From: an uncultured virus (IMG/VR IMGVR_UViG_3300017991_000098)
Taxonomy: Duplodnaviria > Heunggongvirae > Uroviricota > Caudoviricetes
Strand: one strand, 5' to 3'
Length of the DNA: 64,000 nt
IMG/VR virus record: IMGVR_UViG_3300017991_000098
Shown here: piece by piece, positions 710 to 29,276 of the stretch
How the letters are laid out: the number at the start of each line of letters is the position of its first letter
Position numbering within the stretch: the stretch's first letter is position 1
Made by a program: the position numbers and the translations under genes
Notes under the pieces: generated by a model
Told to the model about the DNA's origin: nothing
Seen by the model: the letters and a program-made list of their open reading frames with translations, nothing else
Databases searched by the model: none

Positions 710-1167
710 GCTTCCTCCTTCTTGCCCAAACCGAGCCTCTCCCTTAGCTCCACGTGCCACTTGTCATCATAATCATACAGCACGACGTTTGGCTGTTCTG
801 TTATCTCTCCACCCAGTTCGTTCTCTAAGCACTCCTTATACATCCTGACGGAGAAAGTGCTGTAGATAATAAAGACAGCATTGGGATGGTCCTCTGCCTG
901 CCTCGCCAATTCGGCAAAGTGTGAGGCGACAGTGTCTTCACATCCATACGTCATGCCACCAAAGTCGAAGAGATAGACGTCGAACGGCTTGTTCTTCAAC
1001 TGGTATGGGAAGATGTCCCTCTCGAAGGACAGGTCGAATTCGACCATGACATCCTGAAGTTCCTCTTCGATAGCGTCGTATTCGGCACCCTGGTCGTTGT
1101 CATGAACACATGACGCCATGGGGTCCGTACACATAACTACTCGTAGTTTGTCCTTTTTATCAGACAC
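706..1167 (-). CDS. Hypothetical protein, possibly degenerate receiver-like fold
   Basis: 153-aa ORF overlapping its neighbours; FDVYLFDFGG resembles receiver strand beta3. Confidence 0.5.
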   Translation of the reverse strand: MSDKKDKLRVVMCTDPMASCVHDNDQGAEYDAIEEELQDVMVEFDLSFERDIFPYQLKNKPFDVYLFDFGGMTYGCEDTVASHFAELARQAEDHPNAVFIIYSTFSVRMYKECLENELGGEITEQPNVVLYDYDDKWHVELRERLGLGKKEEA

Positions 1168-1598
1168 GCCTCTTCTCCTTCTCTGCCGGCATTCTCCATA
1201 AAAACTTCATAATCAACGCACTCTAGATCAATGTCGTAATTCTTGGGCAGACCGACGTATACTACCTTGCTACCGGCCTTGAGTGCATTGACAAAAACTT
1301 CCTGATGCCAGCCAGAATGGTTTGGTCTAGCTATCAAGACTGTGTGGTCTGGCCGAAACGGGTATTCTATGGCGCACACGCCATATGACACATCGGCGAG
1401 TGGGCACCTCCGTTCCATAATGTCGATACCAATTACGTGCGAGTGCAGGCTACTGAGTAAACCCACACCACACCCACAGTCTATAATGAGCTTTTCAGCC
1501 CCCAACCACTCAGAGAAAGCGGCCGTGGGCTGAAAGAAGATCATGTCTGGCAACTGCACCAATAGGCCTTGATCGGCCATCACGGAGTAGATACTCAT
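1137..1598 (-). CDS. SAM-dependent methyltransferase-like protein
   Basis: IIDCGCGVG (motif I) followed by VIGID. Confidence 0.6.
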   Translation of the reverse strand: MSIYSVMADQGLLVQLPDMIFFQPTAAFSEWLGAEKLIIDCGCGVGLLSSLHSHVIGIDIMERRCPLADVSYGVCAIEYPFRPDHTVLIARPNHSGWHQEVFVNALKAGSKVVYVGLPKNYDIDLECVDYEVFMENAGREGEEACLIKRTNYE

Positions 1599-2488
1599 AG
1601 GTTGAGTACCCTCGGATTAGTGATTGCCTTCTCGAGCGCGGCGAAGCTAGTCTGAAACCTCTCTGTATCCCTGTCACCAAGAACCTCAGCATACCGTGCA
1701 ACACGATCCCGAAGTGCGGCAACCTGCTGTGTACGGTGGAGGGTCCACCGCTCTGTGGCCTCATCATCTCCGGCCTTAACCTTCTCAATATCCTCATCAA
1801 GCTTCTTCATGACGGCCCCAATCTCTTCCACGAGGCCACCACGTACAGCCTGCCGAGTAGAATCAACGTTGGGAATCGGCAGGTGTTCAAGTGTTGAATT
1901 ACCAAGCTGTGATACCAGAGACGAAACCTTCACCACGAGATCATGGAACACGGCAGGTACGTAGTATACCCCACCCTGCTGCCGCAGGCACACAATGTCA
2001 GCATGGCTGGAAAAGATGCGCTGAATAAGCCGAGTGATGTCGGATGATCGGAACTTGGTCTTTTCATCTTCAAAAAGTTCTGCCAAGCGGTTACAGATGT
2101 CGTCTGGTCCCTGAATGGCAGCGCGGAAGTTGCGGTCCTTCCTGTAATCAGATTTGTTGATGGTTATGGTTGCCTCACGGTTATATTCAAGAACCATGTC
2201 ATCTTCAGCCTTGCTCTCTGCGGTGAACTGATAAACCATAATGCCTGCGTTTTCTTCCACCGGACGGATAATGCGGTTTTCTTCCATGAACTTTAGGGCG
2301 CGTTTGAAGGCACTCAAGTAACTGTGTTCACGAGCAAAACTGCCAGGTAGCCCAACCGATTCAAGAAGCACTATGAGTTGTTGACGCTGGATCTGAACAT
2401 TTCGGACGTTCCAATACACAATCTCGCCAAGGGCGTTTTCGCACCCTTCCAGTGTTGCTACTAACTGTGCTTTTTGCATTGTAGTCAT
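1595..2488 (-). CDS. Conserved hypothetical protein (DUF6744/DUF3150-like)
   Basis: 297 aa; GEIVYW N-terminus and LRQQGGVYYVP motif. Confidence 0.55.
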   Translation of the reverse strand: MTTMQKAQLVATLEGCENALGEIVYWNVRNVQIQRQQLIVLLESVGLPGSFAREHSYLSAFKRALKFMEENRIIRPVEENAGIMVYQFTAESKAEDDMVLEYNREATITINKSDYRKDRNFRAAIQGPDDICNRLAELFEDEKTKFRSSDITRLIQRIFSSHADIVCLRQQGGVYYVPAVFHDLVVKVSSLVSQLGNSTLEHLPIPNVDSTRQAVRGGLVEEIGAVMKKLDEDIEKVKAGDDEATERWTLHRTQQVAALRDRVARYAEVLGDRDTERFQTSFAALEKAITNPRVLNL

Positions 2489-2503
2489 CTTGGGTCCTTC
2501 CGA

Positions 2504-3226
2504 TTAAAGTTGTAGAGTGCGAACGCCCATACAGGCGAACTGGCTCACAACTTGGTTGTTTGCACTGGAAGCTTGACTTCCAATATTGTTGAGAAGCTCT
2601 TCAAACTCGGCAGGCGGGGTCACATCCTCATCCTCGTCGTTGAATAGCTTGCGGACACCCATGGCCCCGAAGTTGACAACCTGAACAGCAGCCGCCACGA
2701 CCTCAGCAAGACGCTTGAGATAATTGCGCACACCACGAACAAAATTGCTGCTGGTCTTGCGTTTGTTGCCGAACGTCATGGTTTCACCACGCTCAACCAC
2801 ACCACCAGTGATCTCAAAAGACTCGGATTTGGAAAGAAGAAGACGAGTGATGGTCTTCTTCCATGAATTGAGGATCTCCACATACACATACTGGGTGGGA
2901 TCGTATTCAATAAGCTCTGTCATGGTCTTGCCGTCGAGGGAGACGAAGAGTAGCTTGGAGATTTTGTTCTGGTGGCCAAGATCATCGGCGGTCTTCTTCT
3001 CCTGGTCAAGCTCTTCCTCGGAAACGAGCTTATAACCCTTCTTTTCCTTTTCTCTGATCTTGCGGTTGACGAAGGACTGCGCCTTTGACTGATTGGTAAA
3101 GTTCTTGGTCTGCTCATCACCGGCAAGACCGACTCGCCCCCACTTTATATGAACCTCGGTGGGACTGAGGTACTCATATTCCCAAAACTTGTTATGTTGT
3201 GCGTCATTGTTGAGATATTTTGGCAT
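2504..3226 (-). CDS. WGR-domain protein
   Basis: NKFWE...VHIKWGRVG...KIREKEKKGY. Confidence 0.8.
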   Translation of the reverse strand: MPKYLNNDAQHNKFWEYEYLSPTEVHIKWGRVGLAGDEQTKNFTNQSKAQSFVNRKIREKEKKGYKLVSEEELDQEKKTADDLGHQNKISKLLFVSLDGKTMTELIEYDPTQYVYVEILNSWKKTITRLLLSKSESFEITGGVVERGETMTFGNKRKTSSNFVRGVRNYLKRLAEVVAAAVQVVNFGAMGVRKLFNDEDEDVTPPAEFEELLNNIGSQASSANNQVVSQFACMGVRTLQL

Positions 3227-3825: not shown

Positions 3826-4242
3826 TTAATACTTACGCAGGGTGATGGTAGTTTCTCCAGTGTTGTCGTTGACTTCCTCGTCGTACATCCACCCATCATT
3901 CAATGCCATATCCTGCACCTCTTTGCGTACTACCTCTTTGGTATACTCATTGATGAGGTACTGACAGCCTGGGCCAACTAGTGCCTGTAGACCCATGCCA
4001 CCACGGTAGTTGTCCCACTTAAAGCAATATGTGCCTTCTTCGGTGTCTTGAAAACACACACCGATTTCATAGGCCATGCTGTTATCAGGAACTCCGATGG
4101 CGTGTTCGCAGTCACCATCTTTGTGACCATACCATTTGAACTTCTTCTTGAATTTCTGAAAGTTAAGACCAAGCTTATTGCAAGCCTGTTCAAGAGATTC
4201 AAGGTCCTTTATGGTAACATCAACAACAGTAATATGACTCAT
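3826..4242 (-). CDS. DUF1257 (Ycf35-like) protein, paralog 1
   Basis: MSHITVVDVTIKDLESLEQACNKLGL...YEIGV...WD; GGAGG RBS upstream. Confidence 0.75.
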   Translation of the reverse strand: MSHITVVDVTIKDLESLEQACNKLGLNFQKFKKKFKWYGHKDGDCEHAIGVPDNSMAYEIGVCFQDTEEGTYCFKWDNYRGGMGLQALVGPGCQYLINEYTKEVVRKEVQDMALNDGWMYDEEVNDNTGETTITLRKY

Positions 4243-4348
4243 TTTCTGTCCTCCGTACGAGTCGAAATTGACTACCACAAAATAGCAATGGCTGTGCCAG
4301 CGAAGGTACAGCCGGTTGTATACTCAGATATTATGAAGACAGACAACC

Positions 4349-4864
4349 CTATCTCTCTGACATATCTCCTTGATCATCCTGACATTTCTCTTTGAACTTA
4401 TCCTTGGCGATCCGGAACTTGCCATCGCAAGAGTGACAAGAAATGATGGTATCAACGTCTTTTGATACTTCATGAGCCCGAGACACATTGCAGTGTGGGC
4501 ATGCCACAAAAATTGTGCAGGCGTTGGTTAGTATCCTGGGCTTTGTCTGTTTATGCTCAGGTATAAGCCCATTCTTGCGCTTTTCTTCTGCATGCTCCAA
4601 TTCCATATCAAGAAAACGCTGACCGAGCATATCTAAAAAGGTTCTCTGAAACAAATTCAGATTTTCACCGTTGTCTCTCTTCTCCTTCAAATCATCGATT
4701 ATATCTCCGGCCCTAGAGATCAAAAGCATCGAATCTTTCATAGGCAAATTAGCAAGCTCTTGCGCTAACTGCTCTGGACTACTGTCCATAACATCTTGCA
4801 TCATGGCATGGCCAAGCGTGTCAACGTTCAGTTCACCGCTGATTAATTTACCTATGAGAGACAT
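4349..4864 (-). CDS. Hypothetical protein with C-terminal zinc ribbon
   Basis: CPHC...CHSC; start overlaps upstream stop (TAATG). Confidence 0.6.
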   Translation of the reverse strand: MSLIGKLISGELNVDTLGHAMMQDVMDSSPEQLAQELANLPMKDSMLLISRAGDIIDDLKEKRDNGENLNLFQRTFLDMLGQRFLDMELEHAEEKRKNGLIPEHKQTKPRILTNACTIFVACPHCNVSRAHEVSKDVDTIISCHSCDGKFRIAKDKFKEKCQDDQGDMSER

Positions 4865-5322
4865 TAATACCTCCGAAGCGTGATGGTCGTTTCGCCAGTC
4901 TCACCATTGTATGATTCATCGACCATCCACCCGTCTTCGATGGCCATCTCATTCACCTCGGCTCGAGCAGCTTCCTTTGAATACTCATTGATGAGGTTGT
5001 CGCACTCATTACCGACAACATTTTGGAGCCCATACCCACCACCCCAGAAGTCCCACAAAAGACAGAATCCTTCTTGCCCGTCCCGGCGTTCACAGACTCC
5101 GATCTCGTAAGCCCTGTTGTTGCCCTTGACACGAAGTGCGTGAGCACATTTGCCCATGTCCTCTTTATTAAAACCATTAGGTAAAGGGTAATCACCAACA
5201 TGCCGACCATACCACTTGAATTTGGTTTGACCCTCGATAAATTCCAAGCCGAGTGTCTCACACGCCTTCTTGAGGGCTTCGAGGTTCTTAATCTGGACGT
5301 CTACGACCACGACATGACTCAT
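4864..5322 (-). CDS. DUF1257 (Ycf35-like) protein, paralog 2
   Basis: MSHVVVVDVQIKNLEALKKACETLGL...YEIGV...WDFW; clearly homologous to 3826-4242. Confidence 0.75.
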   Translation of the reverse strand: MSHVVVVDVQIKNLEALKKACETLGLEFIEGQTKFKWYGRHVGDYPLPNGFNKEDMGKCAHALRVKGNNRAYEIGVCERRDGQEGFCLLWDFWGGGYGLQNVVGNECDNLINEYSKEAARAEVNEMAIEDGWMVDESYNGETGETTITLRRY

Positions 5323-5346
5323 TTTGTGTATCTCTCCTTATCGTTG

Positions 5347-5582
5347 CAGTTATCCCGCGTGCGCGGAGTACATGTTTACGCCTTCCTGATCGCAGTGTCG
5401 GCTACCCATCTTCCCACGCGTGTTCGGAGCGCATTCATTTGTATTGGTCTGGAATGTCCCCATCTTTCCACGGAGCGTGAAGCTTGTAAACCCCATCTTT
5501 CCACGCGTGCGCGGAGCGCATTTCGGTGTCGCTCTTCAGCACGGAATACTCATCCATCTTTCCACGCGTGCGCGGAGCGCAT
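5347..5582 (-). CRISPR. CRISPR mini-array 1 (5 repeat units, 2 degenerate)
   Basis: +strand repeat CATCTT(C/T)CCACGCGTGCGCGGAGCGCAT at 5407-5434, 5494-5521 and 5555-5582; degenerate copy 5347-5373; internally deleted copy at 5461. Spacers 33, 26, ~16 and 33 nt. Confidence 0.9.
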
Positions 5583-5636
5583 ATTTGGTTAGTGAGTGAT
5601 TCCTCCTCACCATAAGGACCTGATGGAAGACCCCAT
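5583..5636 (-). ncRNA. Conserved array-proximal leader/scaffold element, copy 1
   Basis: Minus strand ATGGGGTCTTCCATCAGGTCCTTATGGTGAGGAGGAATCACTCACTAACCAAAT; near-identical copies precede all four arrays; two predicted hairpins. Confidence 0.7.
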
Positions 5637-5643
5637 AAAACAA

Positions 5644-6342
5644 TCATGAATCTTGTTTGTCTTCATATTGCTTAATGAAATTCTTGACGAAACTGAGTCG
5701 AGTTCCGATCAAACGCTTTGGATCATCTGGATCACGAAAATAAAAAGCAGCACCAGAACCACGTGGCACAACCTTTATGCAATCGGAGCCCTGAATATCG
5801 ACATAAGTTTCATCACCGACAGCACGAGTTTCTGACCGAATACGGCTGCGAACACGTTTAATCTTCAGCCTGCGTTCACGCAGTCGTTTATCTTCAATGA
5901 TCTTAATTTGCTCATCTACCGACGCGATCTTGGAGAATCCCCTTGGCAGCAATCTTGCCCATTCTGGATGCAGTACCTGGGAGGCTGGTTTGACCAACCT
6001 CTGTCCATCCACCGTAACAACAGTGACATCAATGTTGTTGATAATGTCGGCGGATGTGTCAGAATCAATCCGAGAAATCATGTGATCATCGAGACCGCAA
6101 ACGGACATAATGGCCTCATTGATTTCACCATTGCCGATTCGGCTCAATACCTTAAAACGAACCCTCGTCATGCCGCGTACGTTGCAAACATGATCTCGGA
6201 ACTTTTTGAACTCCCCAGTGTTAAGCAGCCCCTCCCATTTAACGATGATGCCGCCGAGTGCACGATAACCATCATGAATGGCAGTCAAACACTCATCAAA
6301 TTCTGCGCAAGCTTGTTCCAATTGTCCCATCGTTGCTGTCAT
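5644..6342 (-). CDS. Hypothetical protein embedded between CRISPR arrays 2 and 1
   Basis: 232-aa ORF with GGGAGAG RBS; no recognised motif. Confidence 0.7.
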   Translation of the reverse strand: MTATMGQLEQACAEFDECLTAIHDGYRALGGIIVKWEGLLNTGEFKKFRDHVCNVRGMTRVRFKVLSRIGNGEINEAIMSVCGLDDHMISRIDSDTSADIINNIDVTVVTVDGQRLVKPASQVLHPEWARLLPRGFSKIASVDEQIKIIEDKRLRERRLKIKRVRSRIRSETRAVGDETYVDIQGSDCIKVVPRGSGAAFYFRDPDDPKRLIGTRLSFVKNFIKQYEDKQDS

Positions 6343-6350
6343 AATCTCTC

Positions 6351-6612
6351 CCTTCGTTCGTGTGCGCGGAGCGCATGTCTTCTAGCGTTTTGCCTCATTC
6401 TGACCATCTTCCCACGCGTGCGCGGAGCGCATGCGTTCTTGCGCAACTTCTCCAAATCACTCTCATCTTCCCACGCGTGCGCGGAGCGAATCCCTGCACC
6501 ATCTTGCGCTCTTTCTCCGTAACCATCTTCCCACGCGTGCGCGGAGCGCATAGGAACCTATTTGGTGGCGACATCTACAACGCCCATCTTCCCACGCGTG
6601 CGCGGAGCGCAT
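6351..6612 (-). CRISPR. CRISPR mini-array 2 (4 intact repeats + 1 degenerate terminal repeat)
   Basis: Repeats at 6405-6432, 6464-6491, 6524-6551 and 6585-6612; degenerate copy ending 6376. Spacers 28, 31, 32 and 33 nt. Confidence 0.93.
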
Positions 6613-6666
6613 ATTTGGTTAGTGAGCGATTGCTCCTCACCATAAGGACCTGATGGAAAGGCCCCA
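6613..6666 (-). ncRNA. Conserved leader/scaffold element, copy 2
   Basis: Minus strand TGGGGCCTTTCCATCAGGTCCTTATGGTGAGGAGCAATCGCTCACTAACCAAAT, starting 8 nt after the stop codon of the Cas12f-like gene. Confidence 0.7.
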
Positions 6667-6674
6667 CAAAATAA

Positions 6675-7955
6675 TTATGCGGCTTCGCCGCTCATCTCGT
6701 CAACGCTCTTCGTCTTAACAAATGAGAGGCCGTGCTCCTGACACTTATGCTCAAGGAAAGTCAAAAACTGGTAATATGTCCAGTCACCCAGCATCTTGAT
6801 CGGACCCACCTCACACAGGTCAGTAATTCTGATGCCCTCGCACTTGCGTTTGATGGCTTCTTGAACAATGGCATGAGTGCGCTGGTGGTTCCAAGTTTTC
6901 TGGAAATTTTCACGTTTTGTGCGAAGATTATCATACGCCTTCATGGCTCGTTTACGACCCCTGCCATGCCGCGCAGTTTGCCGTCCATCACAGCGGAATG
7001 AATTACTCATGCTGAGCCGGCGCTTCTCGAATTGAACCATCTTGCGCCTCACATCTTCCCATGGCAACCGCCATTTCCAATTTGGATTATCAGACGGTGC
7101 GGCACACAGAAAGATATTTGGATCATCATCGACCCAAATATCAAAAGTCCTGCCTTCAACAGCCTTATGATTCTTAACAGGAACCTGGGCATTGAATACT
7201 GCATACCACTCGTCCTTATTGCCCTTCCTGTGACGTACAAATTTAATTTGTGGAACGTCGAGATTGCTGTCGATGAATACATCGATAAATTGTTTGATCT
7301 CTGTATTCTTATGATTCCAACTGCATGGGATTAACATCCTGGTGCTTTCGCGCCTGCCGGATTGCACAGCCTCTTTGCTGAACATTGTAACAGTGAGTAC
7401 ATAATTATCACCATCACGTTTGAGTGACCATGTTCTGGCATTCTGATCAAAAGATTTATCGCTGTGCCTGCTTACACCACGTGTTCCATCCACCAAGATG
7501 CCCTTGCGCTCAGTCTTATAGCGGCTGGCTGCTGATTGCTTGGCGACCTGAATCATCCCAGAAGCAATGTCCGGACACTCATCATGCAGTGTCCTAATGA
7601 TTTTAGAGACTTCACTCTTAATCACCTCCTTGCTTGGTAGTGGAAGCGAAGAAGCCCAAGAGGGTGCCTTCCTATTATTATCAATTGCATCTTTGATACG
7701 ACTATTCACAGCAGCGATTTCATCTGGGTTATAAACAGTATCGATTCGCCCCCACATTTGCAAAAAGCGATTCATAACAAAACGATAGTTTTTTGCGATC
7801 TCACGGAATGTCTTGTACTCATCGCCTTTCAAGTGTAACTTGATCTTGATGGCTTTTGGGGCCAAGTGGGTCCTGCAACAACGACCATTACCAAAAGACA
7901 CTGTCTTTTGGGTTTTTACTTCTTTGTTACAGATAAAACACTGAATTGTGCCCAT
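6675..7955 (-). CDS. Cas12f/TnpB-family protein, predicted nuclease-dead
   Basis: C-terminal HGRGRKR...LRTKRENFQKTWNHQRTHAIVQEAIKRKCEGIRITDL...LGDWTYYQFLTFLEHKCQEHGL matches the Cas12f bridge-helix/RuvC-II pattern. RuvC-I GIDLG appears replaced by FDIWVD and RuvC-II EDL reads TDL; no C-terminal CxxC finger or RuvC-III. N-terminal CxxC...CCxxH; flanked by arrays. Confidence 0.85.
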   Translation of the reverse strand: MGTIQCFICNKEVKTQKTVSFGNGRCCRTHLAPKAIKIKLHLKGDEYKTFREIAKNYRFVMNRFLQMWGRIDTVYNPDEIAAVNSRIKDAIDNNRKAPSWASSLPLPSKEVIKSEVSKIIRTLHDECPDIASGMIQVAKQSAASRYKTERKGILVDGTRGVSRHSDKSFDQNARTWSLKRDGDNYVLTVTMFSKEAVQSGRRESTRMLIPCSWNHKNTEIKQFIDVFIDSNLDVPQIKFVRHRKGNKDEWYAVFNAQVPVKNHKAVEGRTFDIWVDDDPNIFLCAAPSDNPNWKWRLPWEDVRRKMVQFEKRRLSMSNSFRCDGRQTARHGRGRKRAMKAYDNLRTKRENFQKTWNHQRTHAIVQEAIKRKCEGIRITDLCEVGPIKMLGDWTYYQFLTFLEHKCQEHGLSFVKTKSVDEMSGEAA

Positions 7956-7986
7956 ATCACTTTCTCCTTATCCACACAGTATACGA

Positions 7987-8045
7987 CCATTTTCCATTGC
8001 TGGTTGGTGAGACCACCTCACCATATGGGACAAATGGAGCCCCAT
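7987..8045 (-). ncRNA. Diverged fifth scaffold copy with repeat remnant, upstream of the cas-like gene
   Basis: Minus strand ATGGGGC-TCCATTT-GTCCCAT, then TGGTGAG-GTGGT-CTCACCA, then ACCAGCAATGGAAAATGG: the same two hairpins with compensatory changes. Confidence 0.6.
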
Positions 8046-8072
8046 GAAATCATCAAAAAATCCCCACATCGG

Positions 8073-8243
8073 CATCTTCCCACGCGTGCGCGGAGCGCAT
8101 GAGATCTCACTCTCCTTACACAGGCAAAAGCACATCTTCCCACGCGTGCGCGGAGCGCATGGGGTATTAATATTGACCATCTTCCCACGCGTGCGCGGAG
8201 CGCATGGTCATCTTCATTCATGTCACGCGTGCGCGGAGCGCAT
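8073..8243 (-). CRISPR. CRISPR mini-array 3 (3 intact repeats + 1 partial)
   Basis: Repeats at 8073-8100, 8133-8160 and 8178-8205; partial 8224-8243. Spacers 32, 17 and ~18 nt. Confidence 0.9.
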
Positions 8244-8295
8244 ATTTGGTTAGTGATTCCTCCTCACCATAAGGACCTGATGGAAAAGACCCCAT
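8244..8295 (-). ncRNA. Conserved leader/scaffold element, copy 3
   Basis: Same element with a 4-nt deletion in hairpin 2; TATAAT at 8299-8304 (minus strand) just upstream. Confidence 0.65.
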
Positions 8296-8319
8296 AATAT
8301 TATATACCCAAATGGTAAA

Positions 8320-9867
8320 TTACCCAATATTCAACTGTCGACCAGCCTGATCCCTGGCCCCCTTATGGGTTTCACTGGCATTGATGGCGTTGTCCTCGGC
8401 CCAATTCTTCATCTCCTCAAGATCACTGCTTCTGGACTTGGACAAGGGGTTGGTACCTTGAATCGCTGCCAGCACGTCGTCAGATTCCAATTCGCGATCG
8501 TTATGAAATGCGAGAAAAAGACCAGACCGGATGGCTTCTTCAAGCTCTGCGCCACTGAAACCATCGGATTCTTTAACGCATTTCTTGAAATCGAAATTCT
8601 TGGGGTCACGACCATACTTGCCAGCATGAATAGCCAAGATCTCAGCGCGTTCCTCTGGAGAGGGAAGGCCAACGAAGAAGATCTCGTCGAAGCGGCCCTT
8701 GCGCAGAAGCTCAGGCGGCAAGCCTTTCATGCGGTTAACCGTAGCGACAAGGAACACCGGGGCGGTCTTTTCCTGCATCCACGTGATGAAGTTGCCGAAC
8801 ACGCGCTGACTGGTGCCGCCATCCGTACTACCGCTACCGCCCATACCTGCAAATGCCTTATCCATCTCATCGATCCATAACACACATTGACCAACAGCTT
8901 CAACCGTCTGGATAGCACGGCGCAGGTTACTCTCAGACTCACCCACCAAGCCACCAAACACGCGCCCAATGTCGAGTCGAATGAGAGGGACGCCCAGGAT
9001 GTTGCTAGTAGCCTTGGCTGCGAGACTCTTACCACAACCGGGGAGGCCCACAAGCAGGGCACCACGTGGATTGGGGAGGCCGAATTCCCTGGCCTTCTTG
9101 CTGAACGCCTTACTGCGCATCTGCAACCACAATTTGAGGTTCTCCAACCCGCCAATATCATTGATGGTTTCGCTGGTTGGGAAGTATTCGAGGGTCCCTG
9201 ACTTCTTGACGGCAGAAGCCTTCTCAGCCAGAACAAGTTGTGACAGGGAAGTACCCTCGCCCATACTGGCAGCAATAATGATGGCTTTCGAGTACGCATT
9301 TTCGGCCTCGGTCGTGGTAAGGCCCATGGCTGCTTGAATGATCTTATCGCGCTCATCTTCATCAACATTAATGCCGCGCTTCTTAAGACCGGCCTTGTTG
9401 GTTTCGATTACTGCATCCAATGTCTTTGCCAGCGTCTCACGATCTGGCAAATCAAATTCGATGAGTGCAACGTCACGTTCGAGTTCCGGTGGGATCTGCT
9501 TGACGGGACTTATGATGACTATCGTCTTTTGAAGTTGCTTAAAATCGTTAGCAATGTCGCGCATCATGCGCACAGCCCTGACTTGCTTCCACGCAATGTG
9601 GATATCACGGAAGATATAAACAGCAGGACCAGGAAGCTTCTGAATGTGCATGAGGGCCTTGATGGGTTCAGCCATAGATTCGTCATATTGGACTTTCTTC
9701 TTGTCTGCACTAGGCTGATACATACCACGCGAACACGACCAGACGTGGATGTTTGGACGACCAGACTCTGCACAAGCCTTGATGACCTCTTTTTCTGCTC
9801 TGCCCTCTTCGGCAGTCAGCAAATAAATCACGGAATAACCGGCGTTAAAATAGGAAGCCAGATCCAT
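8320..9867 (-). CDS. Ycf46-like AAA+ ATPase
   Basis: DIGGLENLK, Walker A GLPGCGKS, Walker [31 protein letters not shown] before MDLASYF. Confidence 0.9.
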
Positions 9868-10122
9868 TGTGTTCCTCCTAAAAATGTGACAAAGGGATAT
9901 GCAAGAAAAAGTCACCCTTTCCTAGCAAACCGTGTGCCAGTTCACACATACCGCCAGTTGTATGTCTAGCCTCGACATCTTGTCGCTCTGACATAGAACA
10001 CTTTCTGTGTGACATGTTTTCTTGTAGTTTATATGGGGTTGGTAAACTATTGTGGATGCTCGTAGAGGCTAGTAATTTACCCTCGCTGCTATATAAGCGG
10101 ACAGAAAGACAGGAGGACCAAA

Positions 10123-10347
10123 ATGTCCGTTGAAGTGAAAGAAATAACCGACAACATCGAGAAGACACTAAGCCTCGCAGAAGATGTTGATGATGACGCT
10201 GAACGCTTTGACCCGTCAACAGATAGTGCAGAGATACATGTGCCAACCATGCTTGCTGTCTTGTCGCAACACCTGACAAATCAAGCCATGATTATGGAAA
10301 TACTAGGTGAGATAGAGTCAAACACTCGTATGAGGAGAAGAACATGA
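10123..10347 (+). CDS. Hypothetical protein
   Basis: AGGAGG RBS; ATGA overlap with the next gene. Confidence 0.65.
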   Translation: MSVEVKEITDNIEKTLSLAEDVDDDAERFDPSTDSAEIHVPTMLAVLSQHLTNQAMIMEILGEIESNTRMRRRT

Positions 10348-11108
10348 GCAAGACCCCAAAGCTTCATGAAGTTATTGCGGTAGAAGGTGAACTGGCTGGC
10401 GTGAACAGCCGGATTCTCACCGAGACTGCGGCTACCCTGAGCAAGAAGGAAGACCACTTCCTCGCGTGGCACAAGACCTATGAACCGAAAGACGAAGATG
10501 GGGAGAAGTTCCCGGATGAACACCACGAGATGGTGACCACCGTCCCGGATAAGCTCCAGTACATGTTCAAGCAGGTCGTGCCCTACATCGACGCTGTCCT
10601 GCAAAAGGAGCGCACTAACCAAGACGCCAGAGCCGACCTCGAGGTTGATGGGGTCATGATCGCAGAGGGGCTGCCTGCCACCTTCCTACTCGGCATGGAG
10701 ACCAAACTGAAGGAATGGCGCAAGGTTCTGGACTCCTGCCCCACCCTGGCCCCTGGTAAGTCGTGGCAGAAAGACGAGACAAAGGGTAAGAATGTCTTCG
10801 TCAGTGAGCACGACGACAAGCGCAGCAAGACGCAGAAGACCGTCAACCATAAGGTCATTGTACAGCCGACCGAACACCACCCGGCGCAGGTCGTGGAGTT
10901 CACCGAGAACATCATCGTCGGATGGACCAGTACCAGGAACTGGAGCGGCATGATCACCCCGGCCCAGAAATCTGACATGCTTGGGCGTCTGGACAAGCTT
11001 CTGCGGGCAGTGAAGAAGGCCCGACAGCGTGCTAACAGCACCGACCTCGTCAAGGTTAAGGTGGGTGATGCGATGGCTAACTATATCCTCGGAGATCTCA
11101 TTGCATAA
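10344..11108 (+). CDS. Conserved hypothetical helical protein
   Basis: 254 aa; KLHEVIAVE...KTYEPKDEDGE...LPATFLLGME...LLRAVKKARQRAN; GC3-rich codon usage. Confidence 0.75.
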   Translation: MSKTPKLHEVIAVEGELAGVNSRILTETAATLSKKEDHFLAWHKTYEPKDEDGEKFPDEHHEMVTTVPDKLQYMFKQVVPYIDAVLQKERTNQDARADLEVDGVMIAEGLPATFLLGMETKLKEWRKVLDSCPTLAPGKSWQKDETKGKNVFVSEHDDKRSKTQKTVNHKVIVQPTEHHPAQVVEFTENIIVGWTSTRNWSGMITPAQKSDMLGRLDKLLRAVKKARQRANSTDLVKVKVGDAMANYILGDLIA

Positions 11109-11227: not shown

Positions 11228-11281
11228 ATGGGGCCTTTCCATCAGGTCCTTATGGTGAGGAGCAATCGCTCACTAACCAAT
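11228..11281 (+). ncRNA. Conserved leader/scaffold element, copy 4 (opposite orientation)
   Basis: ATGGGGCCTTTCCATCAGGTCCTTATGGTGAGGAGCAATCGCTCACTAACCAAT, almost identical to copy 2. Confidence 0.7.
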
Positions 11282-11371
11282 ATGCGCTCCGCGCACACGT
11301 GGGAAGATGGTTTCGTAAACAGAGCCTGTCGCCCGACGAGATCATGCGCTCCGCGCACGCGTGGGAAGATG
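11282..11371 (+). CRISPR. CRISPR mini-array 4 (2 repeats, one 34-nt spacer)
   Basis: ATGCGCTCCGCGCAC(A/G)CGTGGGAAGATG at 11282-11309 and 11344-11371. Confidence 0.85.
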
Positions 11372-11653
11372 GTGGTGAGCATGAGGTGCGTCATAATCAT
11401 CATGGCAGTGGTTGCGCCATGAGTATTTGATTTTTGTAACTGAGCAGCGTTAGCTTCAGCGTCATAGGTGGAAGTCTGGTCCTACAATCACAGCAGTCCC
11501 ATATGAGAGGGAAGTTGGATTGTGGGTCAAGCCAGACCAAAGCCTCCCGTGCCCGATTGAGGTATGGGGTCAGCGTCATGTACGTCAGCGTATTGCTCAG
11601 ACAGCTTCAGGGAAGCACGCGAACAAGTAGGTAGATTGAAACCCTAGGATAAA

Positions 11654-11748
11654 GCCGAGGTCGTGGGTTCGTGTCCCACCCCGCCATCACCTGGCCCTTT
11701 TGAGTAGAGGACTCGGTGATGGCGGGTAGCTCAGTGGTAGAGCGCGGT
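11654..11748 (+). ncRNA. Circularly permuted tRNA-like domain (YrlA/Y-RNA-like)
   Basis: T-arm GTGGG-TTCGTGT-CCCAC (11663-11679) precedes a closed 12-bp acceptor-like stem CCCGCCATCACC/GGTGATGGCGGG. It is followed by TA and the D-arm GCTC-AGTGGTA-GAGC, and closed by GCCG/CGGT. Confidence 0.7.
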
Positions 11749-11798
11749 GATTCAGATTGAGGTTTCGACCTTACCGAAAATAGCGATGGGACCCAAGC

Positions 11799-11872
11799 TT
11801 TTCGGTAGCCCAATTGGATGAGGCACTGAGTCTAAAACTCAGTTGATATGGGTTCGATTCCCATACGATGCT
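11799..11872 (+). tRNA. Degenerate tRNA / tRNA-like element (anticodon loop TCTAAAA)
   Basis: TAGCCCAATTGGATGAGGC D-arm, CTGAG/CTCAG anticodon stem, ATGGG-TTCGATT-CCCAT T-arm; acceptor stem poorly paired. Confidence 0.5.
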
Positions 11873-19181: not shown

Positions 19182-20828
19182 ATGAAAGAAATAGACAAAA
19201 ACTTTCCATTTAATGAATATAGGCCACACCAAAAAGAAACGATCTTAAAGATGTTGGCCAAATTCGACAAAGTCGATAACATAATACTCGAGAGTCCAGT
19301 AGGTACTGGGAAATCGGTATTGGCAGTCACGTTGTCGAATCTTCTTGGCAGATCATACTACCTCACAATTCAGCGTATACTGCAAGACCAGATCATAAAT
19401 GACTTCCGTTCTCAGGGAATGGTTGAACTAAAGGGTCGTAGTAATTATGAATGTTGGTTCCTGAATCGCATGGCCCAGGTGTCACGCAATGAAACTGCCA
19501 AATTCCTGGATGAAGCAGAGCAAACCGGCAGAAAACTCAACCTAGACAGGGAAGATGACGACGAGGACGAAGAATACGAAGAAGTAGAAAAGCGAAAGTA
19601 TTACGCCAATAAAGGGCGTTGCGTGCGTAAGGGCAAGAGCTTTCTGAAAGGTTGCATAGACAAGAACAAATGCGCCTATAAAAACCAAATAGACGCAGCC
19701 ACGTTCGCCAGGCATTCTGTGTTCAACTTCTCAAGCTTCCTATATCAAAGACGAGCCGGTAGGTTTGGAGAGGAAAGAGACCTGCTTGTGATAGACGAGG
19801 CGCATCAAATTGAACCACAAATAATGGATTATGTTGATGTCACTATTGATGGTAGTGACATTGGTCAGGCATTGCCAGAATATGAAACCGCATTGGAGTA
19901 TCGAGACTATTTCGAACAGGTTGGTCTTACCAAGATAATTGCTGGCCACATGATGCAGGCCGAAAGTGATGAAGATATCGATGAGATGGAGAAGTGGACC
20001 AGGATTCAGGGTAAGTATAACACATTTAAGTTATATGTAGAACATGTGGATTGTGTCGCCGAACTCAAGAAAAACGTGGTGACTATCAAACCACTATATG
20101 CCACTTACCACGCTCCTCGTTTGTTACTCCCAGCTGGACGTCGCCGTCTCTTTATGTCAGCAACCATATTAAATCCGCGCATCTTCGGCGACAGCATCGG
20201 TCTGGACCCAGAAAAAACTGCATATATAACAGTACCGCACACCTTTCCGGTTGCTAATAGGCCCATTCACCTGGATTATGCTGGGTCCATGAAATTTAGC
20301 AACCGCAAGAAAACCATGCCTGCCATGATCAAGAAAATCGACAAGATCATGACCAAGCACAAAGGTGAACGTGGTATCATCCACTGCCAATCCTTTGGTA
20401 TTATGGATGCTATTCTGTCTGGGTTGTCGTCCAAGAACAAACGCCGGATCATAGACCAGCGTGAGTACCGAAGAAGAGAGGAAGTACTCGCCACACAGTC
20501 TATAAGCACAGATTCTGTCATTATGGCCCCAGCCATGCATGAAGGCCTAGACCTGAAGGGTGATCTATCCCGGTTCCAAATCCTAATGAAGGTCCCATAC
20601 CCAGACGCCTCAAACAACAAACAGCTTAAGGTCAGAATGAATGAGTCCTGGCAATATTATTTGTGGTTGACAGCGTTAAAGTTTGTACAGAGCTATGGGC
20701 GCAGCATCCGTGCCCAAGATGATTGGGCAGAGACTTATATTCTAGATAGCGATTTTGACAGGTTCTATGGTATGGCTGATCGATTCAGCCTGCTTCCGGA
20801 TTGGTTTGTTGAGGCGATCCAGGTTTAA
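19182..20828 (+). CDS. DinG/XPD (Rad3)-like SF2 helicase
   Basis: YRPHQ Q-motif, ESPVGTGKS, LKGRSNYEC, VIDEAH, MSAT, EGLDL, KVPYP, QSYGRSIR. Confidence 0.9.
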   Translation: MKEIDKNFPFNEYRPHQKETILKMLAKFDKVDNIILESPVGTGKSVLAVTLSNLLGRSYYLTIQRILQDQIINDFRSQGMVELKGRSNYECWFLNRMAQVSRNETAKFLDEAEQTGRKLNLDREDDDEDEEYEEVEKRKYYANKGRCVRKGKSFLKGCIDKNKCAYKNQIDAATFARHSVFNFSSFLYQRRAGRFGEERDLLVIDEAHQIEPQIMDYVDVTIDGSDIGQALPEYETALEYRDYFEQVGLTKIIAGHMMQAESDEDIDEMEKWTRIQGKYNTFKLYVEHVDCVAELKKNVVTIKPLYATYHAPRLLLPAGRRRLFMSATILNPRIFGDSIGLDPEKTAYITVPHTFPVANRPIHLDYAGSMKFSNRKKTMPAMIKKIDKIMTKHKGERGIIHCQSFGIMDAILSGLSSKNKRRIIDQREYRRREEVLATQSISTDSVIMAPAMHEGLDLKGDLSRFQILMKVPYPDASNNKQLKVRMNESWQYYLWLTALKFVQSYGRSIRAQDDWAETYILDSDFDRFYGMADRFSLLPDWFVEAIQV

Positions 20829-22378
20829 CGTTCATAAACGAATCTGAGCTTTTTCTCGCCAAACACCTTATTGTAATTGTGTTTAGTTGCATATTCAGAT
20901 TCTGTTAAGGACATTTTACGGGCTCTGTTATATAGAGTCTTTTTGTGCATCACCCAACCATTAATCGAAACATACCAGTAATCTGGCTTAACCTCACCAT
21001 CCAATCTAAAGTTGCAAGCCTTGTATGTGGCACCGTTGTGGTTAAAGGTAGTGTCGCAGTAGGATATAACCGTTCGGTACTTGTCTGGCAATCTTTTTAT
21101 GCATCTTGAAACGAACCATGATGCGAAATTCTTTTTCTGGTATCTTGGGTGTATACAGAGTCGTGACAATTCCCTAGTGGTCTCCCTATCCCACGGAAGA
21201 TTTTGCCTAGTCAATGGACTAAAAACACAAACAGCCACCAAGCAATCCATCAAATAGGCACCAAGAACGTTGCCACCGCGACCAGCATTTGATAAATAAT
21301 GGTACTTCGACAAGAGGCTTCTATATTCATCAGCAGTACTGGGTTTTATATTGATGTCGCCGAATTCAAAATCAACCGCCTCAATACTCGACAAGCCAAC
21401 CCAGTACTTAATCAACTCAATAACACGGTCTTTGCAGCCAAACTCGTGCTCCCACAAATACCGCAGTTCGTAGTCTTTACAATAACGCTCAACGTAAGTT
21501 GATTTTGCTTTGTCGTTTCTAACCGCCTTACCTAGAGAATGCCAGTATTCGCCCTGGCACTCTATTAGAAGCGTCTTGTTGTGTAACTGTATGGCGCAGT
21601 CAAAGCAATATGGACCTATTTGGTGTTCAGCTTCATAAACAACACCGAGGTCATCCAATATGGAATACAACACCAATTGTATTGACGAAATGCGCGGCAT
21701 ATTGGACCTAACAACGGCCATCTTTTCTCTATATGCTGGGTCTTTCCACAGCCTTAGGGCATTCTCTCTAGCTATTTTCTGCATCCGTTCCCTATAGCCC
21801 GGAATAGACCAGATTTTTCTCATTGATTCTCTATACGGCTCGCTCCTCCTTTTCTCTATGATGCCGGCCTTGCGATCCTCATCGGCCCAATATGAGCTAG
21901 CCTTCTTAGCATTGTCCACCAACTTTGACTTTGGCATTTTGCCCATGCCAAGCTTGACAGCCTCAGAAAATTCCTTATTACCCTTTCTATTCTCATAGGA
22001 CTTGTCATATATACCACGGCTAGACTTGCGAGAACAACTTATACAAAGGTTGTTCAATTTTGCTGTTCTACGTTGTACGGTCCTGGCCTTGCCGCATCCG
22101 GGACAAACAACTTCTACCGCATCAGTGTTTGATGTGGAATTTATTCGCCTTTTGCGTGCAGATTCAGCACTGGCTTTGGCACCACATTCAGAACACCTGT
22201 TATAACCAAGCTTTTTCTTTTGCTTATAGAAGTTTGGGGACGTCATTGAGGTAAGATTGCCACATTCGTGGCAATTAAATGTCTTACGCTTTGCTGCCAT
22301 AGAAATAAAATACTATATGGTATGGCAGACCGGTTTAACCTGCTTCCGGATTGGTTTGTTGAGGCAATTCAGATCTAG
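20766..22378 (+). repeat. 63-bp imperfect direct repeat (20766-20828 and 22316-22378) of the helicase 3' end
   Basis: YGMADRFSLLPDWFVEAIQV* versus YGMADRFNLLPDWFVEAIQI*; 10 mismatches, 8 at third codon positions. Confidence 0.9.
20825..22300 (-). CDS. Zn-ribbon + Vsr/DUF559-like endonuclease + Mom-like GNAT fusion, copy 1
   Basis: FDC...LIECQGEYWH...DKAK...LWEHE; YHYL...RELSRLC...NFASWFVSR...ISYCD...HNGATYKACNF. Confidence 0.75.
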   Translation of the reverse strand: MAAKRKTFNCHECGNLTSMTSPNFYKQKKKLGYNRCSECGAKASAESARKRRINSTSNTDAVEVVCPGCGKARTVQRRTAKLNNLCISCSRKSSRGIYDKSYENRKGNKEFSEAVKLGMGKMPKSKLVDNAKKASSYWADEDRKAGIIEKRRSEPYRESMRKIWSIPGYRERMQKIARENALRLWKDPAYREKMAVVRSNMPRISSIQLVLYSILDDLGVVYEAEHQIGPYCFDCAIQLHNKTLLIECQGEYWHSLGKAVRNDKAKSTYVERYCKDYELRYLWEHEFGCKDRVIELIKYWVGLSSIEAVDFEFGDINIKPSTADEYRSLLSKYHYLSNAGRGGNVLGAYLMDCLVAVCVFSPLTRQNLPWDRETTRELSRLCIHPRYQKKNFASWFVSRCIKRLPDKYRTVISYCDTTFNHNGATYKACNFRLDGEVKPDYWYVSINGWVMHKKTLYNRARKMSLTESEYATKHNYNKVFGEKKLRFVYER

Positions 22379-24308: not shown

Positions 24309-24856
24309 TTAGAAGAATCAATCTATTCGCCGGCCCTGGTGCTGGAAAATCAACCGCAGCAGCAGCCATATATTCAGACCTCAAGCGCCGTGGTTATAGC
24401 GTAGAACTCATCAACGAGTACATCAAAGGTTGGGCATATGAAGCTAGGGAAGTTAAGCCATATGACCAATTATATGTGTTTGCAAAACAACTACGCAAAG
24501 AAGAATTAGTTCTGCGAAATGGTGTGGATTTGATCGTCACAGACTCCCCCATCCTTCTGTCCATCTCTTACGCCAGGAAATATGGTTTCAAAGACTGGAA
24601 AGCGCTGCTTGATGTGGCCTGTGGATTTGAGAAGGAGTATCCATCTCTCAACATTTATCTAGATAGGGGTGACTGCCCCTATCAGGAAGATGGACGGTGG
24701 GAAACAAGAAAACAGGCAGTAGAAATGGATCGCCAGATCAAAGAACTAATGGAAGAGTGGCTCAATAATTGGACCGAATCGCCATATGATGCCCATGCTG
24801 CACTGGTGGAAATAGTAGAAGAGAAGATTGATGAGCAAGAAACCGTTGGGGCATAA
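24305..24856 (+). CDS. P-loop NTPase (AAA_28/NadR-like)
   Basis: INLFAGPGAGKST, IVTDSP. Confidence 0.8.
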   Translation: MIRRINLFAGPGAGKSTAAAAIYSDLKRRGYSVELINEYIKGWAYEAREVKPYDQLYVFAKQLRKEELVLRNGVDLIVTDSPILLSISYARKYGFKDWKALLDVACGFEKEYPSLNIYLDRGDCPYQEDGRWETRKQAVEMDRQIKELMEEWLNNWTESPYDAHAALVEIVEEKIDEQETVGA

Positions 24857-25571
24857 AGCCTACGGACACATACCGCACCTGCCAGGTTCTCGTATGGGTC
24901 CTGGTGACCACCATTGTGATGAGGGCCAGAAAAAGATCTGTACCCAAAAAGCACGAGATAAACACGACCTCATCATCGTGCAGGAGAAGGTTGATGGTAC
25001 CAATGTTGCCATCACCAGGATCGACGGGCAGATAATCCCGCTAACACGTAGTGGGTATCGGGCCGAGACCAGCAAGTACAAGCAGCATCACATGTTCGCC
25101 AAGTGGGTCATGCAAAACACTGACCGATTTGAATTTCTCAAAGAAACAGAGACAATAAACGGTGAGTGGATGGTACAGGCACATGGCACTCGTTACAAAT
25201 TACCCCACGAACCATTCGTACTGTTCGATATGATCATCCCAGACGAAGAATCAAAATTTGGTCGCTGGCGTATTCCATTTAAGGATCTGATCTGGATAGC
25301 CCAGGTCAATAAATTCGTGATGCCCAAGCTGCTCCATATAGGAGCCCCAGTTTCCATAGAGGAAATTCGTGGTATACTTGAACCCAGTGGACACGGGGCC
25401 ATAGACCCCGTGGAGGGGGCCGTGTGGAGAGTGGAGCGCAGAGGTAGGTTCGACTTCGTCGCCAAGTGGGTTAGGCCAGACAAAGAAGATGGATCATACC
25501 TACCAGGCCGTGGATCCGATGACGGCATTATTTGGAATTCTTGGTTCGGTTGGGCTTTTTTAGGCCCCTAA
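24828..25571 (+). CDS. RNA ligase (Rnl2-like nucleotidyltransferase)
   Basis: QEKVDGTN (motif I), GEW, FVLFD, EGAVWR, AKWV. Confidence 0.85.
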   Translation: MMSKKPLGHKAYGHIPHLPGSRMGPGDHHCDEGQKKICTQKARDKHDLIIVQEKVDGTNVAITRIDGQIIPLTRSGYRAETSKYKQHHMFAKWVMQNTDRFEFLKETETINGEWMVQAHGTRYKLPHEPFVLFDMIIPDEESKFGRWRIPFKDLIWIAQVNKFVMPKLLHIGAPVSIEEIRGILEPSGHGAIDPVEGAVWRVERRGRFDFVAKWVRPDKEDGSYLPGRGSDDGIIWNSWFGWAFLGP

Positions 25572-28997: not shown

Positions 28998-29276
28998 CTA
29001 ATACTCATTATTACGCAGCTTATCTAGAACACGTTCTAACTTATCCCTATTGCTGAGAAGAATTCTTTCCATTTGGGTGTTCTGCGGGTCATCAAACTTC
29101 CGCCTGCCCATGGCGATCACAATGAGTTCAATATCTTGCGCAATCATCCTCTGGATACGTCTGGGCTCCTGCTCCAGGGCATGCTTTAATAAGTTGACTT
29201 GCTCCTTTAACCTACTAGTGGCATCCGGATAGACTTCTGGCTCAAGAGCTTCATCAAGTCTTTGACTAAACGACAT
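28998..29276 (-). CDS. Hypothetical protein
   Basis: Starts MSFSQRLDEALE at a TAATG overlap. Confidence 0.6.
   Translation of the reverse strand: MSFSQRLDEALEPEVYPDATSRLKEQVNLLKHALEQEPRRIQRMIAQDIELIVIAMGRRKFDDPQNTQMERILLSNRDKLERVLDKLRNNEY

Follow-up and report, generated by a model that had tools for sequence, protein, structure and literature searches.

The window analysed here is a stretch of 64,000 nucleotides (nt) of an uncultured virus (IMG/VR record IMGVR_UViG_3300017991_000098; Caudoviricetes), and by window we mean this whole 64-kb stretch and not the module alone. Its minus strand carries an uninterrupted open reading frame (ORF) of 426 amino acids (aa) for a nuclease-dead Cas12f homologue (dcas12f), a 232-aa ORF without known family or fold, and three short arrays (A, B and C) of one 28-nt repeat, which share the strand of dcas12f and are interleaved with both genes. 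In gene direction, an AAA ATPase gene (8320-9915) is followed by leader and array C, a leader-like copy without an array (copy E), dcas12f, leader and array B, the 232-aa ORF, leader and array A, and more small ORFs. A fourth unit of leader and array (D) is located on the opposite strand at about 11.3 kb (Table 1). The 426-aa ORF and the four arrays are as described in a first-pass annotation of the sequence, which made no mention of the leaders, of copy E or of the erosion of several units and had also reported that cas1, cas2, cas4 and transposase genes are absent. Indeed, no Cas1, Cas2, Cas4, transposase, Tn7 or sigma-factor family was detected by Pfam among the 59 window ORFs, of which 5 were scanned at E<=1 and 54 at E<=1e-4.

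Table 1. Features of the dcas12f module and of the fourth leader-array unit.
Feature	Position	Strand	Basis
dcas12f, nuclease-dead (predicted), C-terminally truncated Cas12f homologue, 426 aa	6675-7955	-	ORF, profiles, fold, alignment
Partner gene (predicted), 232 aa, no known family or fold	5644-6342	-	ORF, homologue in L001
Leader/scaffold C (putative), begins GGGG, predicted to form two hairpins, directly 5' of array C	8244-8293	-	
Array C, 4 repeats (first with insertion); spacers of 10, 17 and 32 nt	8073-8243	-	
Orphan leader-like copy E, two-hairpin topology, no repeat, immediately 5' of the dcas12f ribosome-binding site	about 7990-8047	-	
Leader/scaffold B (putative)	6613-6665	-	
Sigma-70-like promoter, TTGACG-18-CATAAT, 10/12, consensus match only	6674-6703	-	
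Array B, 5 repeats (last degenerate); spacers of 33, 32, 31 and 28 nt	6349-6612	-	
Leader/scaffold A (putative)	5583-5634	-	
Array A, 4 repeats and one collapsed, last degenerate; intact spacers of 33 and 33 nt	5346-5582	-	
Leader/scaffold D (putative)	11230-11281	+	
Array D, 2 repeats, one 34-nt spacer	11282-11371	+	

A Cas12f homologue with a degenerated active site

The 426-aa protein is clearly a homologue of Cas12f and has the Cas12f (WED-REC-RuvC) fold. It matches the PADLOC profiles of Cas12f (PDLC01699; E 1.4e-31, residues 35-414 against profile positions 6-342 of 399) and Cas12u3 (E 1.6e-30), and a sequence search against solved Cas12f structures gave E-values from 5.4e-17 (Cas12f1, 9i8y) to 1.9e-10. 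The NCBIfam profile guided_TnpB is matched with 62.5 bits, below its cut-off of 100, and the Pfam profile Cas12f1-like_TNB only over positions 1-22 of 60 (15.4 bits against a cut-off of 26.3). An AlphaFold2 model built on an alignment of 16 sequences (predicted local distance difference test, pLDDT, 83.3; predicted template modelling score, pTM, 0.71) supports the assignment at the level of the fold. The best Foldseek match is AsCas12f (8j12_A; E 2.7e-22, TM 0.59 over 399 columns), accompanied by other Cas12f structures and by the sigma-E-type dCas12f 9n9c_A (E 3.8e-15, TMt 0.64). The matches to TnpB (E 6e-10 and worse), Cas12m (E 2.6e-9 and worse, TMt 0.31-0.41) and Cas12k (E 4.9e-8 and worse) are far weaker.

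The motifs that had been read at the active site are all in place, FDIWVD at residues 271-276, ITDL at 377-380 and WTYY at 392-395, with the last residue of the chain at 426. In the 16-sequence alignment, which includes four active relatives, the RuvC-I Asp of GVD(M/L)G corresponds to W274 and the RuvC-II Glu of IQ(L/I)E(D/N)L to T378, and the chain stops before the segment TSQxCSxCG...NADxNAA that holds the CxxC finger and RuvC-III. An alignment of 133 sequences repeats this result. The loss of these four elements, as proposed by the first-pass annotation, is thereby borne out, and the protein lacks the RuvC D-E-D triad as well as the zinc finger of the target nucleic-acid-binding (TNB) part and is predicted to be unable to cut DNA. 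A pairwise HMMER alignment could put D276-278 near RuvC-I, residues that are not conserved in the relatives; judged from the sequence, the missing third of the catalytic site stands whatever the placement of D276-278. The C-terminus corresponds to the point where the 365-aa chain of 9n9c ends (equivalent residue 362), a protein that a single-sequence search matches with E 6.8e-4 (query residues 309-412 against chain residues 252-362 of 365). At the other end, residues 6-30 form a CxxC...CxxH motif.

A clade of truncated relatives

A word-index search of 5.8 billion clusters returned only the protein itself. An exhaustive HMMER search gave 319 representatives at E<=1e-3, 150 of which were listed; 17 of these were shorter than 330 aa and were excluded, and the remaining 133 were analysed. 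The two closest relatives, P0002 (468 aa, 43% identical over residues 6-418) and P0003 (459 aa, 30% identical), end at the same point as the query and are both devoid of the RuvC-I Asp, and P0002 also keeps the N-terminal CxxC...CxxH. Among the 133 listed representatives of at least 330 aa, 41 have neither the RuvC-I Asp nor the TNB Cys. Their RuvC-I residue is Y (14), W (8), R (4), F (4) or another one (11), and the RuvC-II Glu is retained in 20 of the 41.

In a quick maximum-likelihood tree the query is found in a clade of 41 rows with an SH-aLRT support of 99, 40 rows being from the 41 dead proteins. The 41st row (P0147) is truncated too and has a Lys at RuvC-II, and one dead protein (P0088) falls outside the clade. 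The grouping of the query with P0002 has a support of 99, and with P0003 added the support is 97. Divergence within the clade reaches 57%, with intact ORFs. A truncated clade of this size and support argues that the truncation is ancestral and has been maintained, rather than being a sign of decay. The possibility raised earlier, that close homologues are full-length and this copy is a recent pseudogene, is contradicted by P0002, P0003 and the 41-row clade, which are truncated alike. A profile of 12 clade members is closer to AsCas12f (E 1.2e-52) than to 9n9c (E 1.5e-19), and the clade thus appears, from this profile comparison, not to be simply the sigma-E branch.

The ten relatives that were looked up (from P0002-P0014) come from metagenomes, are singletons or nearly so, and sit on contigs of 1.5-26 kb. 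A profile search with the alignment of close relatives gave no locus in IMG/VR or in genomes and one metagenome contig (L001; 1,360 bp), and no loci of other truncated subclades were found in genomes or IMG/VR. With tblastn against isolated phages, four records of at most 32% identity were obtained, three annotated as transposase(-like) and one unannotated. The profile of one subclade (A7) retrieved only two full-length, active phage Cas12f loci, L002 (7458-9341) and L003 (7096-11719), on IMG/VR phage contigs of 105 and 62 kb, respectively. They encode a Cas12f of 447 and 541 aa beside CRISPR arrays, apparently active as judged by the presence of the D-E-D motifs and the zinc finger, and L003 contains one more array and one more TnpB/Cas12-like ORF, of 486 aa.

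A conserved gene downstream of dcas12f

According to the first-pass annotation, no gene for a known partner of dead type V proteins was evident. This holds for sigma-E and Tn7, which are absent from the 59 ORFs, but a conserved gene is present in the form of the 232-aa ORF. Contig L001 contains the 3' end of the gene of P0002, followed by a 213-aa ORF that overlaps its stop codon by 4 nt and is 28% identical to the 232-aa ORF over almost the whole length (pairwise E 2e-22). From this recurrence in two loci, the 232-aa ORF is predicted to be a conserved partner of dcas12f. In the window, leader and array B separate the two genes, and the ribosome-binding site of the partner falls inside the degenerate last repeat of array B.

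The partner family comprises two members in the 5.8-billion-cluster collection, and no homologues were found in IMG/VR or phage records. There is no match to Pfam, NCBIfam, PHROG or PADLOC families, including regions 2 and 4 of sigma-70. The AlphaFold2 model is poor (pLDDT 53.4), with the N-terminal 80 residues as a helical bundle (pLDDT 66-90). Weak leads point to a ParB/KorB-type helix-turn-helix (HTH; VIA Z 4.3-5.0, below the noise level of this tool for helical models) and, in the atlas, to DUF3102 (0.90 and 0.91) and a ParB-HTH cluster (0.91). The predicted complex of dCas12f and partner scored 0.00, which counts neither for nor against an interaction.

Leaders, repeats and spacers

The 28-nt repeat reads ATGCGCTCCGCGCACGCGTGGGAAGATG on the minus strand. 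The window contains it 12 times with at most 3 mismatches, the minus strand having 10 of these copies (5407-8205) and the plus strand the other 2 (11282-11371), for a chance expectation of 0.00; none of 100 shuffles reached 12. Degenerate terminal repeats are located at 8216-8243, 6349-6376 and 5346-5373. Arrays A and B each carry their degenerate repeat at the end farthest from the leader, a position consistent with transcription in gene direction. The eight full-size spacers measure 28-34 nt, and the array period is 56-61 nt. An exact search of IMG/VR gave 0 matches for the repeat.

Directly 5' of each of the four arrays is a leader that measures about 52 nt and is predicted to form two hairpins, and a 24-nt leader core is exact in all four copies (0 expected). 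The leaders begin at GGGG after an AT-rich stretch, and in unit B the promoter match lies upstream, with its end 8 nt from the GGGG. After the two hairpins, the predicted fold has a small one within the repeat. The leader is fused to the first repeat, both together measuring about 81 nt, and no extended anti-repeat or separate trans-activating CRISPR RNA (tracrRNA) was seen. Based on the sequence, a pairing of 5-6 bp is possible between the loop of stem 1 (UUCCAUC) and the 3' end of the repeat (GAUGG). Published dCas12f guides are single RNAs of 85-105 nt with a guide of 14-16 nt at the 3' end, and in an array-associated dCas12f cluster putative guide RNAs are described upstream of the arrays (PMC13472631). 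Given this similarity in size and position, we read the unit of leader, repeat and first spacer as a complete putative guide RNA. The repeat-spacer units farther downstream would either rely on the leader acting in trans or go unused.

Copy E has the same topology as the leaders with different stem letters, and its fold stability (z -2.8) is accompanied by a loop (UCCAUUU) that could pair with a downstream AAUGGA. It may be either a stand-alone scaffold/guide RNA or a copy serving as promoter/5' untranslated region. The only match of its 3' flank in the window is one 16-mer with 2 mismatches, which we take as chance. For the dCas12f of the relative, L001 offers a candidate guide RNA of the stand-alone type, as the 86-nt intergenic stretch at 1130-1215 (+), between the partner gene and a tRNA-Leu(UAG), folds into two hairpins (z -4.9, with 0 of 200 shuffles as stable), followed by a T-run. 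A kinship of this RNA with the window leaders was considered, as both have a GGTGAG...CTCACC hairpin, and was rejected: BLAST matches are at chance level (best E 1.1-17) and none is in the leaders.

Phage context and neighboring genes

Phage-like genes of the window include a tail-fibre match, a phage helicase and a tail-assembly chaperone, and the AAA ATPase next to array C belongs to phrog_8638 (E 1.4e-143). No capsid or terminase gene was recognised in the window. The jumbo phage suggested by the first-pass annotation finds no support, the sole record of the source contig being 76,993 bp long. The stretch was found in one DNA run, from a sediment metagenome, with contigs identical to the window at a depth of about 3-5x and no array variants.

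The neighbors of the module (1595-3226, -; 8320-9915, -; 10344-11108, +) encode DUF6744, WGR-domain, AAA ATPase and DUF7873 (E 3e-74) proteins. Directly downstream of array A, in the same orientation, two paralogous ORFs of 150 and 152 aa (3826-4278 and 4864-5322, both -), which share a 140-nt DNA repeat at 70% identity and match no family, lie on either side of a 171-aa ORF that has a zinc-ribbon-like motif. At a distance of about 270 nt downstream of array D, a YrlA-type Y-RNA-like match (11639-11864, +; 41.3 bits for a gathering score of 69, E 9.5e-8 on 601 nt) is followed by a tRNA-like element (11806-11864; 33.7 bits for a gathering score of 29); no tRNA of the window is called by ARAGORN. 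At 24828-25571 there is a gene for an RNA ligase (PF09414). More distant genes comprise a 453-aa ORF (37704-39065, -) with a C-terminal Tad6 domain, an inhibitor of type I Thoeris with a role in counter-defence (PF25188, E 2.5e-35), two large paralogues (20825-22300 and 29276-30730, both -) with C-terminal Mom-family domains for DNA modification (PF25680; phrog_1384) and HNH/homing-endonuclease-like N-terminal parts, and an adenosine deaminase (35983-36927, -; PF00962, E 5e-57).

Discussion

Based on the protein, its conserved neighbor and the leader-array units, we consider it probable that the module is a phage-borne, array-associated dCas12f system that binds DNA in an RNA-guided manner without cutting it, for the purpose of silencing and with the 232-aa protein as cofactor. 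In such a system, each of the four short transcription units would yield an RNA composed of the leader of about 52 nt, the 28-nt repeat and a guide. The retained scaffold of WED, REC and RuvC core would hold this guide RNA and form an R-loop, and the DNA would remain uncut. The RNA-loaded dCas12f would then bind complementary DNA beside an adjacent motif and stay there, thus blocking transcription or replication of the target, which would most likely be a competing mobile element or a host gene. The downstream 232-aa protein would work with dCas12f as a cofactor or output module. A more specific version, in which dCas12f and its partner constitute a phage-specific two-protein RNA-guided effector, dCas12f finding the site and the partner delivering the output (by blocking or recruiting polymerase, or otherwise), is put forward tentatively and seems to us rather doubtful. 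If true, it would represent a solution reached independently and in parallel to that of sigma-E in Bacteroidota, and its guides would come from several self-contained scaffold-guide units open to multiplication by the phage.

Because no spacer target was found and the lookup of sequencing runs for the stretch gave no RNA run, this functional assignment is derived from homology and precedent. The analysis establishes the homology, the fold, the loss of the catalytic parts, the old and conserved truncated clade, the reality of the arrays and leaders and the conservation of the partner; that the protein is loaded with RNA, binds DNA and silences, and what part the partner plays, we infer. The silencing of host or competitor genes had already been proposed in the first-pass annotation, and a comparison of the spacers with viral and host sequences had been suggested as a check. 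For the 13 guides, no second match was present in the 64-kb window with up to 6 mismatches over the full spacer, nor with up to 2 in the first 16 nt or up to 4 in the first 20 nt. No phage record out of 50,697 was matched at E<=1 in a blastn search with 5300-8300. The matches of arrays A-C to plasmids and of array D to phages were at chance level only (E 0.7-10), and an exact IMG/VR search with the first 22 nt of spacers B1, A1 and D1 (three of the eight full-size ones) gave 0 matches. Silencing consequently stays something that we infer, with no target found for any spacer.

These negative searches and the missing RNA run weigh against a silencing system, and so do several features of the module itself. 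Array C has spacers of 10 and 17 nt and an insertion in its first repeat, and array A has a collapsed repeat within a 59-nt interval; with such erosion, some of the array units are therefore probably not used. The predicted leader folds are only modestly more stable than shuffled sequences (z -1.2 to -1.9 for A, B and D), and the four copies are nearly identical, precluding a covariation signal. Fold searches with the partner returned a best VIA Z of 5.6 and no Foldseek match in PDB or BFVD at E<=0.001. Finally, the two active phage Cas12f arrays (L002, L003) have periods of 65-75 nt, unlike the 28-nt repeat of the window with its period of 60-61 nt, and the arrays could therefore be built by, or serve, another CRISPR type.

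This last point leads to the view that the arrays are independent of dCas12f and are mini-arrays that borrow a host CRISPR system (e.g., one of type I whose repeats measure 28-29 nt and spacers 32 nt) against competing phages, dCas12f then using only stand-alone guides such as copy E, or none. Besides the period of 56-61 nt, which differs from that of the active phage arrays, the combination of a 28-nt repeat with spacers of 28-34 nt is one that we take to resemble type I-E/I-F arrays. Viral mini-arrays with repeats identical to those of the host and directed against related viruses are established, according to PMC11656645. We nevertheless regard this view as improbable. Three arrays on the same strand flank and separate dcas12f and the partner gene, every array has the same leader and a fifth copy of it is found directly 5' of dcas12f, no Rfam CRISPR-DR family matches at E<=1, and the published array-associated dCas12f loci are described with a putative scaffold upstream of the array (PMC13472631). 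The eroded units may also be taken as a sign that the whole module is a non-functional relic, i.e., a decaying type V-F locus with a truncated effector. The 10- and 17-nt spacers, the collapsed and the degenerate terminal repeats, the lack of an adaptation module in the scanned ORFs and the great rarity of the family, with the protein alone recovered from 5.8 billion clusters, would fit this idea. Decay is difficult to reconcile with a truncation common to a 41-member clade that has intact ORFs at up to 57% divergence, with a closest relative (P0002) that has the same partner gene and retains the entire scaffold along with the zinc motif at its N-terminus, with a 24-nt leader core that is exact in four copies, or with a dCas12f model that folds with high confidence, so that we give a relic little credence.

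If the partner replaced sigma-E and recruited the host or phage RNA polymerase to sites specified by the guide, the module would be an RNA-guided activator, which we judge unlikely. According to PMC13472631, the sole experimentally characterised C-terminally truncated dCas12f works in this way; moreover, the partner is conserved, is translationally coupled in L001 and has an N-terminal helical bundle with a weak ParB/KorB-type HTH likeness (Z 4.3-5.0). These Z values are, however, below the noise of the tool for helical models, the partner shows neither sigma-70 region 2 or 4 nor any Pfam, NCBIfam, PHROG or PADLOC match, the clade profile is much nearer to AsCas12f, a nuclease (1.2e-52), than to 9n9c of the sigma-E type (1.5e-19), and the bacterial array-associated dCas12f cluster is proposed to repress (PMC13472631). 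As an anti-CRISPR decoy, the dead Cas12f would shield the phage against cleavage by a type V-F system of the host, either by sequestering the CRISPR RNA/tracrRNA of that system or by sitting on the phage sites that it targets. Such a role was proposed for a Cas9 of a phage whose RuvC domain is inactivated (cited in PMC11656645), and the window is rich in counter-defence genes (the Tad6 domain, E 2.5e-35, and two Mom-family proteins). We consider a decoy very improbable, as the phage's own four arrays and their leaders would be superfluous for it and the conserved partner gene would be left unexplained.

For silencing by an array-associated dCas12f, there is a bacterial precedent. C-terminally truncated dCas12f proteins bind DNA via a guide RNA (Hoffmann et al., 2026, PMC13472631), and non-cutting Cas12f relatives were shown in 2026 to be natural RNA-guided transcription factors in bacteria, as reported in the same publication. 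It also describes dCas12f beside CRISPR arrays with putative upstream guide RNAs, for which transcriptional repression is proposed. The claim of a new RNA-guided system in the first-pass annotation is therefore too broad, since truncated dCas12f, arrays and an upstream scaffold have already been described together (PMC13472631). A literature search judged from titles and abstract openings gave no phage-encoded dCas12f, and phage carriage of Cas12m is known (PMC11656645). The module suggests that programmable DNA binding may be in use among viruses too, directed at rivals or serving to reprogram the host, and that output proteins of more than one kind have become linked to the dCas12f scaffold. 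The partner provides a concrete, testable handle on the function of such systems, and a small (426 aa), naturally dead protein with compact guide units is of practical interest for tools of the CRISPR interference type.

In comparison with other non-cutting type V derivatives, the module shares with Cas12m (type V-M) and TldR a likely RNA-guided binding without cleavage and the carriage by mobile elements, these two being known as non-cutting repressors of plasmids and temperate phages, and with TldR phage-carried non-cutting RNA-guided regulators are known. Cas12m is a different lineage (Foldseek E 2.6e-9 and weaker). TldR is described as TnpB-derived, with an omega-RNA and without CRISPR arrays (PMC13472631), whereas the module here best matches Cas12f and has arrays. 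Cas12k belongs to CRISPR-associated transposons of type V-K, whose Tn7-like genes tnsB, tnsC and tniQ were not found among the ORFs scanned here. Active type V-F Cas12f (AsCas12f 8j12, SpCas12f1 9i8y and those of phages L002/L003) gives the best matches and has in common with the module the adjacent arrays, the absence of cas1, cas2 and cas4 and the carriage by phages; here, by contrast, the D-E-D triad and TNB are missing, the repeats have 28 nt instead of about 30-40 nt and no separate tracrRNA was found. In the case of the dCas12f-sigmaE system of Flagellimonas taeanensis (9n9c), the truncation point is the same and the scaffold of about 81 nt plus guide compares with guides of 85-105 nt. 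The similarity is weak, though, there is no sigma factor in the 59 ORFs, and real arrays take the place of single guide genes.

The closest parallel comes from bacteria, in the form of the dCas12f cluster found with arrays (Hoffmann, Wiegand et al., Nature, 2026, PMC13472631), which is described as having the same fold, the same C-terminal RuvC truncation, adjoining arrays with a scaffold upstream, no rpoE and a proposed role in repression. Compared with this cluster by its description only, the module differs in its phage-like contig, in its four units of leader and mini-array, in the leader copy without an array, in the 232-aa partner and in the N-terminal CxxC...CxxH. The kind of system is thus already known, namely truncated dCas12f including the array-associated cluster (PMC13472631). 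New in this module are its setting in a phage, the multiplied leader-array units along with a leader copy that has no array, the zinc motif at the N-terminus and, most notably, a conserved partner that belongs to no known family.

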